Source of the DNA: Patescibacteria group bacterium
GTDB lineage: Bacteria; Patescibacteriota; Patescibacteriia; CAIXNZ01
Assembly: GCA_041651155.1 (NCBI GenBank)
Contig: JBAZJU010000002.1
Coordinates: forward strand, 21,467 to 85,466
Reading direction: 5' to 3'
DNA length: 64,000 nt
Both the position numbers and the translations under genes were made by a program. The notes under the pieces were generated by a model. The model was not told where the DNA came from. It ran no database searches and saw only the letters and a list, made by a program, of their open reading frames with translations. Below are positions 16,674 through 43,166 of this stretch, in pieces (positions within the stretch are counted from its first letter, which is position 1; every line of letters starts with the position of its first letter).

Positions 16674-16728
16674 AAAATATAGGCTAATATTAGCAATAAA
16701 AGTGTTAATTTACTATAAATAAATAAGT

Positions 16729-16815
16729 CCCTGTAGTTTCCGCCCAAGGCGGATCAGCCTGTCTTGGCCAAGGCCAGGCCTCTGGCTGACAACGGATACA
16801 CTGACAATTAAATAA
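16729..16815 (+). repeat. 5' fragment duplicate of tRNA-Arg fused to a GC-rich hairpin element
   Basis: aaataagtccctgtagtt repeats the tRNA start and is followed by ccgcccaaggcggatcagcct...ggctgaca. Confidence 0.6.
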
Positions 16816-16887: not shown

Positions 16888-17001
16888 TATTTTGGCCTTA
16901 TAGCTCTGCCAGCCGGAGTACATTCAGAGTGGGAGAGCTAAAGGGCTCAAGTCCTTATGGTCAAAATATAAAATTTTGCTTTAAAATGAATATGCTAAAA
17001 T

Positions 17002-17289: not shown

Positions 17290-17580
17290 TAATATGGCTA
17301 TTTAGCTCCCACCTATGCACCTTTGGAGCTCCGGCTGGCAGGCAACCCTAAAATGACACCATTTGTGGATGTTTATCCTATTTTTACTAAGGGCAATTAG
17401 CTCCAGCCTAAAAGGGCCCCTTTGGGGCTGGTTAGAGCGTACGATTCACACCTGCCTGCCGTAGTATATAAATTCTAAAAATTATTAGCAAATATGGCCA
17501 TTTAGCTCACACCTACGCATACGCTTCGGCGGGCAGGCAGTTGGCTAGAGCGCTTCATTCACACCTGTCCGCCGAAATTA
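17290..17580 (+). repeat. three degenerate 5'-half copies of tRNA-Val with GC-rich hairpin insertions
   Basis: Each copy runs GGC(Y)ATTTAGCTC[insertion]..GTTAGAGCG..TTCACACC(TG) and stops just past the anticodon loop. Confidence 0.6.
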
Positions 17581-17581
17581 T

Positions 17582-17655
17582 GGGATTATAGCTCAGTTGG
17601 TCAGAGCGTACGGTTCACATCCGTAAGGTCAGAGGTTCAAGTCCTCTTAATCCCA
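17582..17655 (+). tRNA. tRNA-Val(CAC)
   Basis: GGGATTA..TAATCCC acceptor, anticodon loop TTCACAT, T-arm AGAGG-TTCAAGT-CCTCT. Confidence 0.85.
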
Positions 17656-17894
17656 ATACTTATGAAGGCGGATTGAAGAGGTCGCAGATTCAAGCCCTGC
17701 AATGGCCATACGAAGGCAGGTTCGTAAGGTCACTGGTTCAAACCCAGTATTGCCCACCTTTGTCCTACGAAGCTTTAGACGGTCGGTCTTCGGCCTTTAC
17801 AGACGGAAGTCGGCTACTGAGCCGACGAATGTCGTTAAGCACAGCCCACAAAACAACATTATTACTTATTACTAATTACTTATTACTAATTTAC

Positions 17895-21803: not shown

Positions 21804-22023
21804 TTTTTTTCTGTCAACGCCCAAATTTCACTTCATTTCATTCAGTGAAACTTCAGATAGCCCGAAACGTTATATGAAACATGCTTTTCTTTTTACGGCT
21901 AACCTGCCGGCAGGCAGGCAGGCGCCTAACAATTTTCTTTGCGCGAATCTTGCGCGAATCTTGCGCGAACCGCTATTTTGTGATATAATGCCAGCGTAGT
22001 CTAAAAAATCCATACTTCATAAT

Positions 22024-23079: not shown

Positions 23080-23385
23080 AAGCGATATGGCTACAGTTTG
23101 CATTTGCCCATTTAATTCCCCTCCGCCCTTCCCGCCAGAGGCGGACACAGCGTCCAACCTGCCTGCCGGCAGGCAGGAACGGAAAAAGAAAAGTATAGCT
23201 GGCTACCCCTTCGACTCCGCTTCGTTCCGCTCAGGGTCCGCCCATATTGTTCGTCTTAAGATAATCAAGATATACTATAAATAACTAATTCAAAACGAAC
23301 AACATCAGATATCCCGAAACGTTATCGGAAATTTTATTTGCCCTTAATTTTATTTTAATTTTACCCTTTTAATCTAAATTTTAAT

Positions 23386-34866: not shown

Positions 34867-34940
34867 AAGCGGGTGACCGGAATCGAACCGGCATCTCGAC
34901 CTTGGAAGGGTCGCATACTAACCATTGTACTACACCCGCC
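34867..34940 (-). tRNA. tRNA-Gly(TCC)
   Basis: Minus-strand GGCGGGT..anticodon arm CGACC-CTTCCAA-GGTCG..T-arm GCCGG-TTCGATT-CCGGT. Confidence 0.85.
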
Positions 34941-34983
34941 CAGATAAAAGTTTGTGCATTTAAAGCTTCAACCTTCTTTTATC

Positions 34984-35216
34984 TCAGCTAGAGAAAAAAT
35001 GGTTTAAACGAATCATCCATAAACTTTTATCTGGGCACGCAGTTATTTTATTTTCTTTTCCCGATTTATTTAAATATTCGGAAAGCATTGTCCTCAAAGT
35101 CGTTTTACCCTTGGTTGTCTTAAAATACTTTTCTCGTCTCAAGGCATCTGATTTATTTAAATATGCTTCGTAAAAAATCAAATCTAACGGCCGCCTATAT
35201 TTAGTTGAGGGACATC
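34984..35216 (-). pseudogene. N-terminally truncated GIY-YIG nuclease-family (UPF0213/YhbQ-like) remnant
   Basis: STKYRRPLDLIFYEAYLNKSDALRREKYFKTTKGK parallels the C-terminal half of ORF 36017..36283; in-frame stops remove the GIY half. Confidence 0.5.
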
Positions 35217-35420
35217 ACCATCATGATGTCTTTTTGTTCTTTCCGTGATGTTAGCGGTAAATCCAATATAAAAATTTTTATCTTTTTGAGATAACAAAAT
35301 GTATGTATAGTAAAACATATTCTGGGGTTAAGGCCATGCACCAGGCGGTGCACGACCATAAACCATTTACCTTACAGTAATGACGGACTCAAGACCCGCC
35401 ATAAACCGCATGGTTTATGG

Positions 35421-35494
35421 TCGGGCTGGTGGGACTTGAACCCACGATCTTCTGGTCCCAAACCAGACGCGATAGCCAACTTCGCTACAGCCCG
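35421..35494 (-). tRNA. tRNA-Pro(TGG)
   Basis: CGGGCTG..anticodon arm TCTGG-TTTGGGA-CCAGA..T-arm GTGGG-TTCAAGT-CCCAC..CAGCCCG-A; downstream hairpin ccataaaccgcatggtttatgg. Confidence 0.85.
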
Positions 35495-35639
35495 TAAATT
35501 ATTTTAAGATAGCCTCCGCCAGAGACTGGTCAGCCTTTGGCTGAAACTTCTCTACGGCCCGTTATTATTAATTACTAATCTTCAATAATTAATTTTCAAA
35601 AATTATAAATTGAAAATTGAGCATTGAAAATTCTAATTG

Positions 35640-35894
35640 TGCCTGGGGGCAGAATCGAACTGCCAACCTGCCTGCCGGCAGGCAGGCGCAAGGCTACGAA
35701 CCACTCACTTCGTTCGGGTGCATGGTAAATTTTTCAGCCTGCCCTGCACTAAAAATTTACTATTGCCGAAGGGCAGAATCGAACTGCCAACGCAAGGATT
35801 TTCAGTCCTTCGCTCTACCACTGAGCTACTTCGGCTCATTTGTATAATATTTTTTAGTGCAGGGTCCTTCGCTCTACCACTGAGCTACCCAGGC
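35640..35894 (-). pseudogene. disrupted tRNA-Phe-like gene split by nested insertions (outer gene)
   Basis: 5' half GCCTGGGTAGCTCAGTGGTAGAGCGAAGGAC at 35894-35864 and 3' part CCTTGCG[CCTGCCTGCCGGCAGGCAGG]TTGGCAGTTCGATTCTGCCCCCAGGCA at 35694-35641, interrupted by an intact tRNA-Phe flanked by 15-bp inverted repeats. Confidence 0.55.
35764..35835 (-). tRNA. tRNA-Phe(GAA), intact, nested inside the disrupted copy
   Basis: GCCGAAG-TA-GCTCAGTGGTAGAGC-G-AAGGA-CTGAAAA-TCCTT-GCGTT-GGCAG-TTCGATT-CTGCC-CTTCGGC-A. Confidence 0.85.
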
Positions 35895-36016
35895 CCGATA
35901 AAAGTCTGCGTATTTAATGGATAAACAATTATTTAACCGCTGATCAATTTAAAATGTTGAACCAAATAATACCTAAACTTTTATCGGGCCAGAGGCCTTT
36001 ATATTATATTTAGCCT

Positions 36017-36283
36017 CTACTTTTTTATAATATTTTGCAAAAAATTCTTTAATCTTTTTTTGAGATATCTTTTCCCCTGACCGCTTTTTAAAAACTTCTC
36101 ACGTTTTATTGCATCATATTTATTTACACAACATTCATAATAAATTAAACAAATTGGCAATCTATTTCTAGTTGAAGGTACTTTTCCTGCCAAATGTTCC
36201 TTGTGTCGCTTTTTTAAATCCGAAGTATACCCGGTATAAAAATTTAAATCTTTTTTGCTTAAATAGACATAAACAAAATACAT
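36017..36283 (-). CDS. GIY-YIG nuclease family protein (UPF0213/YhbQ-like, 88 aa)
   Basis: YFVYVYL...FYTGYTSDLKKRHKEH (GIY-YIG half), conserved R/E, and YDAIKREKFLK; no SD; starts 27 nt after tRNA-Ile. Confidence 0.7.
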   Translation of the reverse strand: MYFVYVYLSKKDLNFYTGYTSDLKKRHKEHLAGKVPSTRNRLPICLIYYECCVNKYDAIKREKFLKSGQGKRYLKKRLKNFLQNIIKK

Positions 36284-36688: not shown

Positions 36689-38190
<1,502 letters not shown>

Positions 38191-38584
38191 ATGTGATATT
38201 AAAGTATATCACGGACTTATTGTAGAAGTTTTAAACTTCAAATGATTTGACGATTCTATCACTTTTTAGTTGTCAAAGCTTCGCCTTGAATTTCTAATTC
38301 TTGATTTTTGTAAATCTCGAGCGAAGTCCCGAGTCCCGCTACGCGGGACGAGGGATCCATTCCTTCTTTTTTTAAAGAAAGAAAAAAACAGGGAAATCCA
38401 TTGTCTTTTTAAATTATCCCGCTCCGCGGGATTTTTAATAGATTGAATTTGCCTGTTTTTTTCTCCTCCCTTCGACTCGCTCCGCTCGCTCAGGGCAAAG
38501 CCCTTGCCAATATTCTTGCGACCAAGGATATCATCGAAAAAATAAATTTTATTAAGAGTAATTGAAAATTTTAAAGGTTATTTT

Positions 38585-38620: not shown

Positions 38621-39575
38621 GTCAAGGGGTTGTTATGGTTCAATACCTTTGCACCACCCTGTGGTAAGCTTGGGTATATGCCATACACTATGAATCCAAA
38701 ATTACCGCGTCTGCGCATGCAGACTGCGAAGCTCGTATTAAAACAAGGTTGGAGTACGCGACAAGCTGCCAGATATACAGGATTTGACCACAGCACTATT
38801 GTCCGTTGGGTTAAGAAAGCAAGGTTAAGTAACAAACGGATTATTCCCACTGAAAGTTCACGCCCTAATCATCATCCCTTAGCCATTTCACACAAAATTG
38901 TCAGTGCAATTTTAGGGCATCGGGACAAGTATCATCGGTGTGCTGAAGTTATCCATTATCAATTAAACAAAGACGGTATTGTTGTAAGTTTGTCTTCTGT
39001 TAAAAGAACGCTAAAACGTTATGGCCTAATTTACCCGAGCAAATGGAAAAAGTGGCATGTTTATCCGCCTCGTCCAATAGCTGAAAAACCTGGGGTTTTA
39101 GTTGAAATTGACTCAATGCAGGAAGGTTTGCCTGCAGAACATTTACACCTCTATGCCTTAATTGATACCTGTTCTCGCTGGGGATTTGCCAAGCCGGTAA
39201 AAATAGTTAATTCCTGGCAAAGCGCCAAGTTCTTTCTAGAGGCTAAGGATAAAGCATTATTTACTTTCCGTATGATCCAATCAGACAATGGAAGTGAATT
39301 CGCCAAGTGGTTTAACAAACAACTGTTGGCTTCGGGAATTGAACATCGCCATTCTCGGGTAAGAAGACCGACGGACAACGGGCACGTTGAAAGATTTATT
39401 CGGACCATACAGCAAGAGTGTTTAGCCCGAAATCCTAGAAGTTTTAAAGCTTGGCAAAAAGCTATTCCTGAATTTATTAATTATTACAATACCGAGCGTC
39501 CACACATGGGGATTAACATGAAAACACCCCTTGAAGTGGTGCGAAGCTATTGACCAGAAAACAGGGGTTTTTTGG
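38610..39575 (+). mobile_element. IS481-family insertion sequence (approximate ends)
   Basis: Transposase ORF with HTH and rve DDE core. Imperfect terminal inverted repeats TGTTATGGTTCAATACC (left) and GCTATTGACCAGAAAACA (right), the latter overlapping the stop codon. Confidence 0.7.
38678..39553 (+). CDS. IS481-family DDE transposase
   Basis: N-terminal HTH (STRQAARYTGFDHSTIVRW) and integrase core with D..D..E (VEIDSM...QSDNGSEF...ERFIRT). Confidence 0.8.
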   Translation: MPYTMNPKLPRLRMQTAKLVLKQGWSTRQAARYTGFDHSTIVRWVKKARLSNKRIIPTESSRPNHHPLAISHKIVSAILGHRDKYHRCAEVIHYQLNKDGIVVSLSSVKRTLKRYGLIYPSKWKKWHVYPPRPIAEKPGVLVEIDSMQEGLPAEHLHLYALIDTCSRWGFAKPVKIVNSWQSAKFFLEAKDKALFTFRMIQSDNGSEFAKWFNKQLLASGIEHRHSRVRRPTDNGHVERFIRTIQQECLARNPRSFKAWQKAIPEFINYYNTERPHMGINMKTPLEVVRSY

Positions 39576-41982: not shown

Positions 41983-42498
41983 TTATCGGTTATTCCGTGA
42001 ATCTGGGCATTGGTGTTTTACATAGACGGAAAGCCAAAGCAAATGGTCAAAAGAAGTTATTTGAGTCGCTTTAAATTTACCTTGGAATAACACTCCGTTT
42101 CGATTATTTTTAGTATTGAAATACATAGTATAAGATGTCCCTAAACGCTGCATGAATTTTATAATACCGTTTTCTGCTAATTGCCTTACTATAAAATGAT
42201 AATGATTGGGATTTAAACAGTAACAGATAAATTCTACCAGGGGGTCGCTCAAAGGTTCGGCCTCCAAATTGGAGGCCGAACCTTGATCGCCTTGGTCGCC
42301 TACCTTAACTATTTCATTTATCGCTCTTTCCCTCAAAAACTTCCGATAAAACCCACCATCAACTTTGTTAGTATTGAATTCTGTCATGCTTTTTAAGAAT
42401 CTTAAATAATCGCCTTCGTCTAAAAAAACATCGCGTTTATCAACACCGCGATTATAGATATGGTAATATTCGTTATTATTGAAAATTATTTTTCGCAT
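41983..42498 (-). CDS. RAYT/IS200-like Y1 (HuH) transposase carrying an in-frame REP insertion
   Basis: YHIYNRG, HuH motif HYHFIV, GVLFQGKF and Tyr in SVYVKHQ; segment GDQGDQGSASNLEAEPLS is encoded by the palindrome at 42252-42284. Confidence 0.65.
   Translation of the reverse strand: MRKIIFNNNEYYHIYNRGVDKRDVFLDEGDYLRFLKSMTEFNTNKVDGGFYRKFLRERAINEIVKVGDQGDQGSASNLEAEPLSDPLVEFICYCLNPNHYHFIVRQLAENGIIKFMQRLGTSYTMYFNTKNNRNGVLFQGKFKATQITSFDHLLWLSVYVKHQCPDSRNNR
42252..42284. repeat. REP-like palindrome (copy 2), inside the RAYT-like gene
   Basis: aaggttcggcctccaaattggaggccgaacctt with adjacent direct repeats ccttgatcgc / cttggtcgcc. Confidence 0.7.
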
Positions 42499-42503
42499 AA
42501 ATA

Positions 42504-43166
42504 CTAAAAATGACTTTTCTTCTGTCTTTCTCTCCACTCCTTAATCTTGCCGTGATTCCCCGAAAGTAAAACCCCTGGAACTTTCCAGCTCTTAAACTTT
42601 TCCGGCTTAGTATATTGCGGATATTCTAATTCGGCTTGCCCCATTGGGGTTTCTTTGGAAAATGATTCATCTTTTGGCGATTCTAGATTACCTAAAACAC
42701 CAGGCAATAATCTGGTAATCCCATCAACCAAAACCATGGCTGGAATTTCACCGCCGGTTAAGACATAATTGCCAATAGAAATTTCTTCATCAGCCAAATG
42801 TTCAGCCACGCGATTATCAACTCCTTCGTAACGGCCGCAAATCATTATTAACTGGTCATATTTTTTCAAACGTCTCAATTCCTTTTGGGTTAAAGTTTTG
42901 CCCCGAGCAGAAAACAAAATTACCCGAACTTTCTTTTTCTTCTTTATTGACTTGAGCGCCTTATAAATCGGTTCAATTTTTAAAAGCATGCCCGCGCCTC
43001 CGCCATAGGGCGTGTCATCAACTGATTTGTATTTATTGCCCGCATACTGGCGTAAGTCAGTGATTTTAATATAAATTATTTTTTTCATTTGCGCGCGCTT
43101 AACCATGGCTGTGTTGAAATAGCTGTCAAAAATTTGGGGGAAGATGGTGATGATGTTGAAAGTCAT
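42504..43166 (-). CDS. trmD: tRNA (guanine37-N1)-methyltransferase
   Basis: TrmD-fold similarity throughout (ITIFPQ, GGGAGMLLKIEPIYKAL, YEGVDNRV). Confidence 0.9.
   Translation of the reverse strand: MTFNIITIFPQIFDSYFNTAMVKRAQMKKIIYIKITDLRQYAGNKYKSVDDTPYGGGAGMLLKIEPIYKALKSIKKKKKVRVILFSARGKTLTQKELRRLKKYDQLIMICGRYEGVDNRVAEHLADEEISIGNYVLTGGEIPAMVLVDGITRLLPGVLGNLESPKDESFSKETPMGQAELEYPQYTKPEKFKSWKVPGVLLSGNHGKIKEWRERQKKSHF

Follow-up and report, generated by a model that had tools for sequence, protein, structure and literature searches.

A tRNA-Phe gene nested within a split tRNA-Phe gene in a Patescibacteria genome, and the class of tRNA cassettes to which it belongs

Anatomy of the nested tRNA-Phe locus

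The DNA analysed here is a 64-kb stretch of a Patescibacteria genome (the window, to whose full length all positions refer). At 35640–35894, on the minus strand, it carries a complete tRNA-Phe(GAA) gene lying between the two halves of another tRNA-Phe gene. The inner gene sits on a unit of about 127 bp bounded by inverted repeats, the cassette, which splits the outer gene in its anticodon arm. Inverted-repeat units of this kind, each with a complete tRNA cognate to the gene that it enters, are inserted repeatedly in the anticodon arms of resident tRNA genes, and the tRNA-Phe cassette is a member of a class that is widespread in Patescibacteria. From comparison of the sequences we consider it quite probable that the resident tRNA-Phe was replaced, at the level of DNA, by an incoming cassette carrying a complete cognate tRNA.

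The inner tRNA-Phe(GAA) occupies 35764–35835 and has the acceptor stem GCCGAAG/CTTCGGC. ARAGORN and Rfam both bear out this gene, which an initial annotation had proposed from the letters alone, and the Rfam tRNA model matches it over its full length at 72.9 bits against a gathering score of 29. Read 5′ to 3′ on the minus strand, the cassette comprises the left arm CCCTGCACTAAAAA (35851–35864) with an AT-rich spacer leading up to the tRNA (together 35836–35864), the tRNA itself, and a second spacer followed by the right arm TTTTTAGTGCAGGG (35742–35755) and a terminal CAGG (35738–35741; together 35738–35763); only about 55 nt of it are not tRNA. The arms are inverted repeats of 14 nt with 100% complementarity, which lengthen to 15/16 nt if a one-base bulge is allowed. 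The initial annotation had described them as 15-bp repeats and had placed the arm at 35849–35864 correctly, whereas its partner, given as 35746–35760, was 4 nt off.

The outer gene begins with positions 1–31 (35865–35894), i.e., the acceptor strand GCCTGGG, the D-arm and the 5′ strand of the anticodon stem, AAGGA, a segment that matches the intact tRNA-Phe of the related contig L207. The cassette (insert 1) enters at 31/32, the boundary between this 5′ strand and the anticodon loop. The loop itself, CTGAAAA (35731–35737), is stranded between two inserts; this is a reading of the sequence, and the layout is the same in L205, L203, L192, L198 and L103. Directly after CTGAAAA comes insert 2 (35694–35730), a 37-nt hairpin element made of arms only. 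The initial annotation had given it as a hairpin-containing insert of 37 nt, but the accompanying loss of T39 from the outer anticodon stem, which insert 2 replaces, had been overlooked. Beyond it lie outer positions 40–46, CCTTGCG (35687–35693), then, in the variable loop as first described, a perfect 20-nt palindrome, CCTGCCTGCCGGCAGGCAGG (35667–35686), and finally the 3′ part of the gene (35640–35666), which comprises TT, the T-arm, the acceptor strand CCCAGGC and the discriminator A.

The identity of the D-arm and T-arm between the two genes is exact, in accordance with the initial description: inner positions 7–31 are duplicated at 35864–35888 (25/25, E=3e-9) and inner positions 45–65 at 35647–35667 (21/21, E=8e-7). 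The distinct outer acceptor stem is equally real. GCCTGGG (35888–35894) and CCCAGGC (35641–35647) form 7/7 pairs with each other and do not pair with the inner stem, from which they differ by three base pairs, all of them compensated. When insert 1 is deleted in silico, ARAGORN calls an outer tRNA-Phe(GAA) with a 36-nt intron; when all three inserts are deleted it calls a tRNA-Phe, provided that a G is taken as position 39.

In L205, insert 2 is a clean 9-bp hairpin, CCATGCACC/GGTGCGTGG, in comparison with which the window copy is damaged, its 3′ arm being mutated. In L198 it starts with TTTTACCCCGTTAG, near the left-arm motif TT(C/T)ACCCCGTTAG of the tRNA-Val cassettes. We note that the spacer 3′ of the inner tRNA, ATAGTAAATTTTT (35751–35763), is 92% complementary to the start of insert 2, AAAAATTTACCAT (35722–35734). 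The right arm can pair with the 5′ arm of insert 2 as well, in an alternative fold that would put CTGAAAA in a hairpin loop, and the four arm-like segments of the locus make up one family.

That the tRNA-Phe alleles of two strains were merged into one contig by assembly or binning has a negligible probability. In a second assembly of the same strain (L081) the nested locus is identical base for base, relatives from other samples, assembled separately, have near-identical nested loci with small differences (L205/L206, L203/L204 and L192), and the junctions of the locus are unique sequence, not repeats. Chimeric assembly does occur nearby: the window and L081 are identical over about 6.7 kb except for one tRNA-Pro base and the 16S gene, whose 313 differences all fall within 36750–38185, and one of the two 16S regions is probably chimeric. 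Beyond the 16S gene the two assemblies diverge, with an IS481-like gene in the window and TrmD in L081.

The evidence favours a relic status for the outer gene, and the inner gene is presumed to be the working tRNA-Phe. The alternative is a Russian-doll RNA precursor in which both tRNAs would be functional, the outer one being spliced or used in two pieces, i.e., protein-dependent tRNA splicing in a bacterium; we know of no tRNA splicing endonuclease in bacteria. Such a precursor would agree with the stability of the fold (the whole 255-nt locus folds at −107.3 kcal/mol, z=−5.65 against shuffles), with outer acceptor and anticodon stems that are still complementary in many loci, with arms that stay paired through compensated changes, with extra outer inserts that lie mostly in loops (counted below), and with outer exon segments that are unchanged between the window and L205. 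Yet removal of the inserts gives no correct tRNA in the window, where T39 is absent, and other outer copies are defective as well: those of the tRNA-Val family are without positions 36–37, those of L164, L144 and L179 are without any anticodon loop, those of L152, L103 and L114 are truncated, and the 3′ acceptor strand of L203, CCTCAGC, no longer pairs. With such losses, many outer copies would yield no tRNA whatever was removed. A bulge-helix-bulge motif, defined as two 3-nt bulges separated by a 4-bp helix at both junctions, was found neither on inspection of the junctions in the window and in about 30 loci nor in the minimum-free-energy fold, and the arm helix either runs straight up to the 3′ junction or leaves unpaired stretches of unequal length. 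Rfam returns no group I intron or ribozyme in 35350–36000 even at E≤10, and no Intron_gpI anywhere in the window at the gathering score. Finally, the outer anticodon duplicates that of the inner gene, so that the outer gene is unneeded. On this evidence the spliced precursor is very improbable.

Filled and empty alleles, and recurrence at other tRNA genes

Six related contigs, found through FtsK homologues of 79–86% identity, keep the order tRNA-Ile, tRNA-Phe, tRNA-Pro, tRNA-Gly, FtsK. The initial annotation had suggested looking among relatives for an uninterrupted tRNA-Phe, and three of them, L207, L208 and L210, have one. It bears the outer acceptor stem of the window and is identical at 69 of 72 positions to the outer gene minus its inserts, as against 64 of 72 to the inner gene. 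L205 has the nested form, including the 20-nt palindrome, and L203 is nested too, with a more decayed outer copy whose D-loop, variable loop and T-loop hold additional hairpin inserts. The tRNA-Phe loci of L192, L198 and L103 repeat the layout of the window, insert 2 included, around arms of different sequence that are still paired. L210 also keeps an older shell, a tRNA-Phe of the GCCGAGG/CCTCGGC type full of hairpin inserts. This shell encloses the GCCTGGG-type tRNA together with a GIY-YIG gene, and a 47-nt direct repeat flanks the enclosed pair. Taken together, the nestings of L210 and the window indicate that the tRNA-Phe locus records a succession from the GCCGAGG type to the GCCTGGG type to the GCCGAAG type. 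The neighbouring genes behave in the same manner: the tRNA-Gly that is intact in the window is the interrupted outer copy in L205, and the intact tRNA-Ile of the window corresponds (72/74) to the interrupted outer copy in L210. At three tRNA loci, therefore, a gene that is filled in one of these relatives is empty in another.

Two further tRNA genes of the window, both on the plus strand, are nested in two shells each. The tRNA-Cys(GCA) at 2117–2188 lies within two split tRNA-Cys shells (1953–2431); the inner shell, GGCCTGA/TCAGGCC, forms 7/7 acceptor pairs and the outer, GGCCAGA/TCAGGCC, forms 6/7 and has extra inserts in the D-arm and the T-loop. A conserved hairpin, GTCCTCC...GGAGGAC, precedes each tRNA-Cys 3′ half. 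The tRNA-Val(CAC) at 17582–17655 lies within two shells plus an outer fragment (17296–17756), the shells being GGCCATT/AATGGCC and GGGCAAT/ATTGCCC, which both carry a D-loop hairpin insert, and the fragment being a third 5′ part at 17296. The segments of both onions tile without gaps. A 93-nt 'tRNA-Cys' that ARAGORN reports at 17666–17758, and that Rfam does not call, is a false call assembled from two tRNA-Val 3′ halves. Fragments that may be compared with these shells stand beside other tRNA genes of the window, i.e., a tRNA-Pro-like 5′ fragment with a hairpin in its D-arm directly upstream of tRNA-Pro (35519–35561, minus strand), a tRNA-Arg-like 5′ fragment upstream of tRNA-Arg (16727–16759, plus strand), and a decayed tRNA-like stretch downstream of tRNA-Arg (16894–16963, plus strand); no matching 3′ halves were found for the tRNA-Pro-like and tRNA-Arg-like fragments.

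Metagenomes were scanned, with one D-arm sequence, for two identical D-arms too close together for tandem genes, which gave at least 120 stretches. The counts that follow are lower bounds, because the scan is tied to that one D-arm sequence and the matches listed are a part of the whole. Among the matches listed, 62 have an inner tRNA, and at least 32 of these (about 25 distinct) are nested loci in which the outer acceptor strand is 7/7 complementary at the expected distance and the T-stem is intact; a rough estimate of chance occurrence is below one locus. They comprise, among the matches listed, tRNA-Val, tRNA-Thr, tRNA-Ile, tRNA-Met, tRNA-Lys and tRNA-Phe, and inner and outer copies share the anticodon in every parsable case, so that cargo and interrupted gene are always predicted to be one and the same isoacceptor. 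The split falls mostly in the anticodon loop, often at 35/36 (e.g., in tRNA-Thr, tRNA-Ile and tRNA-Cys cassettes), and the cassette measures about 110–140 bp across dozens of unrelated contigs. Nesting can be deeper, with three layers in L183, and the layers of different contigs can be joined into a chain, in which GGGCAAT encloses GGGCGGT (L128) and GGGCGGT encloses GCGCGGT (L132).

Not every match to the two-D-arm pattern is a nested gene. The single viral match, L082, is an ordinary 5′ fragment adjoining a tRNA-Lys. Many matches from samples Ga0224501 and Ga0224511 were set aside as tandem arrays of D-arm-like units, which have nothing to do with the nested design, and ARAGORN finds no tRNA in the scanned array loci of these two samples. 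Long tandem arrays of this sort with a period of 22–60 nt, the unit of which contains the D-arm sequence GCTCAGTGGTAGAGC, are present in L084, L087, L094, L124, L133, L140 and others.

These comparisons bear on a purely local origin, the second possibility raised by the initial annotation, in which a tRNA gene is duplicated in place (e.g., through replication or repair errors at a palindrome) and the copies then diverge and undergo gene conversion. The close likeness of some pairs would fit such an origin: the inner and outer genes of the window differ in the acceptor stem alone, those of L192 and L198 differ by a single base pair, and those of L112 and L162 are near-identical (0 and 1 differences). 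Over the 25 distinct loci, however, about 40% of stem positions differ between inner and outer copies while both remain paired, which indicates that the cargo is normally another allele and not a fresh copy; as a general explanation, local duplication is not supported. The same arms with the same inner tRNA-Val stand in L083 and L132 inside outer genes with different acceptor and T stems; the outer anticodon stem beside the insert is common to the two, and this looks like co-conversion. Moreover, one tRNA type is the inner gene in one contig and the outer gene in another (L128/L132 and L159/L088), and the exchange of filled and empty states at three tRNA loci among relatives is not what a local event would leave. 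Cargo that is the ordinary resident gene of another lineage, and identical cassettes in unrelated outer genes, have thus in part been seen, and a local origin is improbable. The divergence is spread evenly over the acceptor, anticodon and T stems (0.40, 0.40 and 0.46 per site), for which reason we rejected the idea that acceptor stems change to escape a nuclease.

Arms, insertion sites and candidate drivers

Significant flanking inverted repeats are found at the nested tRNAs only and not at their un-nested neighbours. Since un-nested genes are without arms, a general pairing of tRNA leader and trailer was rejected as their explanation. Judged by the contigs compared, arm families track the host lineage and not the identity of the tRNA. 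The end GTGCRGGGCWGG recurs in relatives, 15–20 nt downstream of their nested tRNA-Phe, and likewise behind the nested tRNA-Ile of L210, the end GTGCRGGGCAGG follows tRNA-Phe in the window and tRNA-Ile in L210, and the end ACGGGGCAAG follows tRNA-Val(GAC), tRNA-Val(TAC) and tRNA-Phe, all within contig L103. The tRNA-Phe arm CCCTGCAC is confined, within the 64 kb, to the nested tRNA-Phe locus.

Two of the inserts in the outer tRNA-Phe, insert 2 and the 20-nt palindrome, are versions of the element that consist of arms only. The palindrome occupies three or four sites in the window, among them two intergenic copies at 21899–21922 and 23158–23177; it recurs in many other contigs, unrelated ones of Patescibacteria included, where it is exact in L086, L089, L205 and L208, has one-base variants in L135, L149 and L183, and is missing from the same tRNA-Phe site in L192 and L207. 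It behaves like a phylum-wide element of the repetitive extragenic palindromic (REP) type, and the remark in the initial annotation that GC palindromes mark other loci of this DNA holds for it. Neither intergenic copy has an Rfam match, and the notion that the copies are hidden RNA genes was rejected.

Extra hairpin inserts in the relic copies of the window, L203, L210 and L146 lie, as assigned by eye, in loops or at stem-loop boundaries in about 15 of 18 cases, whereas about 55% of positions would be expected in stems. The loops concerned are the D, anticodon, variable and T loops. A strict loops-only rule does not hold, with exceptions in the D-stem of the outer tRNA-Cys shell and at 28/29 of the outer tRNA-Ile of L210. 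This distribution may reflect entry of the hairpin elements into loops that are single-stranded when the DNA is folded.

Integrative elements classically target tRNA genes, and the cassettes might be scars of larger elements of this kind, i.e., of a recombinase-bearing element that brought a replacement tRNA and was then deleted down to its ends, the arms being the core sites. A model for archaea ties tRNA disruption to a 1.8-kb recombinase-bearing element (PMC3293823), and among the relatives of the window L207, L208 and L210 have a larger insert carrying a GIY-YIG gene, with the 47-nt direct repeat in L210. But no integrase gene is present in or beside the cassettes, the small cassettes end in inverted repeats with no direct repeat of tRNA sequence (such direct repeats as exist reflect the homology of inner and outer genes), their size is held tightly at about 110–140 bp in unrelated contigs, and scans of 2.9 million viral contigs for two arm families gave no match. 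An origin as scars is, in our judgement, improbable.

Small GIY-YIG genes are the only candidate drivers in view. An 88-amino-acid open reading frame (ORF) that consists of the catalytic domain only (Pfam PF01541, E=5.5e-12) lies at 36017–36283, minus strand, between tRNA-Ile and the outer tRNA-Phe, and a second, frameshifted gene lies at 35068–35315, minus strand, between tRNA-Pro and tRNA-Gly, with an intact orthologue (92% identical) in L205. Both copies of the window are thus positioned between tRNA genes, and in the loci examined 17 of 18 GIY-YIG ORFs (about 12 distinct) stand 5–185 nt upstream of a tRNA on the same strand. Several unrelated GIY-YIG lineages occupy such positions, and whether and where the genes occur differs between the window, L203, L205, L207, L208 and L210. 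T4 SegB, a GIY-YIG homing endonuclease that recognizes a motif of the T-psi-C stem-loop of tRNA genes, drives the inheritance of a tRNA region (PMC2330249); by analogy, the placement of GIY-YIG genes upstream of tRNAs suggests a possible homing-type drive.

Of the two possibilities offered by the initial annotation, the comparative data favour the first, in which a mobile unit brings a tRNA copy of its own into the anticodon arm of a tRNA gene. In the sequence of events that we propose, the arms would derive from the mobile hairpin (REP-like) elements of the genome, and a cassette of about 127 bp would have split the resident GCCTGGG/CCCAGGC tRNA-Phe at 31/32. Only those insertions whose cargo restores the broken, single-copy, essential tRNA would survive. 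RNase P and 3′ processing enzymes would release the inner tRNA from a long transcript starting at the 16S gene, and the outer relic, being dispensable, would have gathered insert 2 and the REP-like palindrome. Filled alleles would spread between related strains by recombination through the conserved flanking tRNA sequence, in the manner of homing, and repeated rounds of insertion would build the onions. The spread of filled alleles by homing-like recombination, probably stimulated by the minimal upstream GIY-YIG nucleases, is put forward tentatively, as a possibility on which we would not rely. Less likely still is a wider reading, in which self-complementing tRNA cassettes are undescribed selfish elements with GIY-YIG homing drive, onion shells record an arms race, and essential tRNAs turn over as a result; a cassette that breaks and at once replaces the single-copy cognate tRNA could not be lost by the host.

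Several observations weigh against replacement by cassette or against the proposed drive. No transposase, integrase or target-site duplication is attributable to the cassette, no duplication being present at the junctions, and the bases to the left of the junction vary (AGGA, GTGA, TGGA, TTGA, TTCA, CTTA, TTGG and CTGA), so that no sequence-defined target is evident. The arms in L192, L198 and L103 have kept their pairing through compensated changes, which implies some constraint on the arms at the level of either DNA or RNA. In the window, the inner and outer genes are the same outside the acceptor stem, which requires either that the donor was a close relative or that gene conversion came afterwards. 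Comparison of the window with L205 gives 0 differences in 64 nt for the outer exon segments, against about 11 in 66 for the spacers and insert 2; we attribute this conservation to gene conversion, because most of the sequence in question is identical to the inner gene, and selection on the outer halves may be an alternative to conversion from the inner copy. As to the nucleases, the GIY-YIG proteins have 82–107 amino acids and the catalytic domain only, and Pfam finds no DNA-binding domain in them (weak T5orf172 matches occur in L207 and L210); the one adjacent to the locus is only 35% identical to the tRNA-Phe-linked one of L207, L208 and L210; and no GIY-YIG gene is near most of the metagenome nested loci.

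Relation to known systems and setting of the locus

The likeness to T4 SegB extends to the presence of a GIY-YIG gene among tRNA genes, which varies among related genomes, and to the carriage of neighbouring tRNA genes by gene conversion, which is the logic that we apply to the spread of filled alleles (PMC2330249). Unlike the genes here, SegB encodes a full-size, site-specific phage enzyme and leaves no tRNA nested in a tRNA; the predicted nucleases of 82–107 amino acids are catalytic domains only and belong to a cellular genome, and most cassettes carry no nuclease gene. Phages, integrative and conjugative elements and plasmids that target tRNA genes resemble the cassette in that they insert in the gene and restore a working tRNA. 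However, they run to kilobases and encode an integrase, and the direct repeat that they create covers only one part of the tRNA, the 3′ part or, rarely, the 5′ part. The cassette, at about 127 bp, is bounded by inverted arms, contains the entire tRNA and is enclosed by the two halves of the old gene.

The disrupted tRNA genes of Archaea, with bulge-helix-bulge introns at many positions or in split and tri-split form, share with the nested loci multiple, mostly loop-borne inserts, complementary sequence beside the break and a proposed link to mobile DNA (the Caldiarchaeum model, PMC3293823). In Archaea, EndA excises the inserts from RNA at a bulge-helix-bulge, and the exons are complete; the nested cassettes have no bulge-helix-bulge, often have incomplete exons, reside in bacteria and hold a full replacement tRNA. 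In Patescibacteria, tRNA group I introns are enriched at 35/36, and the survey of tRNA introns in the phylum reports only group I introns (PMC13011429; bioRxiv 10.1101/2025.07.03.662931). The phylum and the target region are the same, and many cassettes (tRNA-Thr, tRNA-Ile and tRNA-Cys) split the gene at 35/36. These introns are nevertheless at least 184 nt long and have a ribozyme core that Rfam detects, in contrast to the tRNA-Phe cassette, which has about 55 nt of non-tRNA sequence and lies at 31/32.

REPs, REPINs and miniature inverted-repeat transposable elements (MITEs) are, likewise, short, dispersed, intergenic inverted-repeat units, of which the 20-nt palindrome and insert 2 resemble arms-only members. 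The window also holds a Y1 (IS200-like) transposase ORF (Y1_Tnp, 41983–42537, minus strand; a weak match, E=1e-5), about 6 kb from the tRNA cluster. Known REPs and MITEs, however, carry no tRNA and do not insert specifically in a cognate tRNA gene. Measured against MITEs and REP-associated tyrosine transposase systems, the cassette has the terminal inverted repeats but no target-site duplication, and none of the arm and palindrome motifs searched for occurs within about 100–170 nt on either side of the Y1 ORF. Insertion of the IS200/IS605 type beside a fixed tetranucleotide was rejected, given the varying junction bases and the lack of palindromes around this ORF.

A full-text literature search found no description of a nested tRNA-within-tRNA arrangement. 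Each ingredient is familiar by itself: mobile DNA that enters tRNA genes, a target that is restored, homing nucleases in the vicinity of tRNAs, and palindromic repeats. Their combination is not: a complete replacement tRNA rides on an inverted-repeat cassette of about 127 bp, lies within the gene that it targeted and is stacked shell upon shell. Few genes are as conserved or as immobile as those for tRNAs, and in these reduced genomes each is probably single-copy. Small cassettes appear to have come in repeatedly and to have taken the place of essential tRNA genes, the old gene being left as a shell. This points to a route, so far unrecognized, by which genes are exchanged horizontally and turned over in a phylum that holds a large share of bacterial diversity. 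The stacked shells would keep earlier tRNA alleles in order, as a molecular stratigraphy, and they account for odd tRNA predictions, such as the false 93-nt 'tRNA-Cys', and for 'extra' tRNA fragments in metagenome-assembled genomes. It is an old question whether mobile DNA that lands in tRNA genes gives rise to the interrupted and split forms, and the nested loci offer a natural experiment on it that is still under way in bacteria. Should the small GIY-YIG proteins prove to cut the DNA of tRNA genes, they would be the smallest known homing-type nucleases.

The cluster lies 3′ of a bacterial 16S gene (36690–38191), which has RecA, FtsK and TrmD-type genes among its neighbours in the window. On the minus strand the 16S gene is followed in turn by tRNA-Ile, the 88-amino-acid GIY-YIG ORF, the tRNA-Phe locus, tRNA-Pro, the frameshifted GIY-YIG gene, tRNA-Gly and FtsK. 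The FtsK protein is identical to one that NCBI lists under 'Patescibacteria group bacterium'. Among GTDB species representatives, searched with FtsK, the best match (76%) is a Candidatus Falkowbacteria genome, which has no tRNAs near its FtsK; the closer relatives compared here were retrieved through the protein database. The recombinase-like ORF nearest to the cassette is an IS481-type DDE transposase (38630–39553, plus strand), which adjoins the 16S gene on its far side.

Between the GIY-YIG ORF and the outer tRNA-Phe stands a 99-nt hairpin, GGCCCGATAAAAGT ... ACTTTTATCGGGCC (35892–35990, minus strand), the 3′ arm of which overlaps the first three bases of the outer tRNA-Phe. It has a twin after the frameshifted GIY-YIG gene and upstream of tRNA-Gly (34939–35035), whose 3′ arm enters the first bases of that tRNA. 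The tRNA cluster of the relatives contains, in addition, another small gene that is variably present, an ORF of the '23S rRNA intervening sequence protein' family (a four-helix bundle), which lies among the same tRNA genes in L207 (1666–2013) and in L192.

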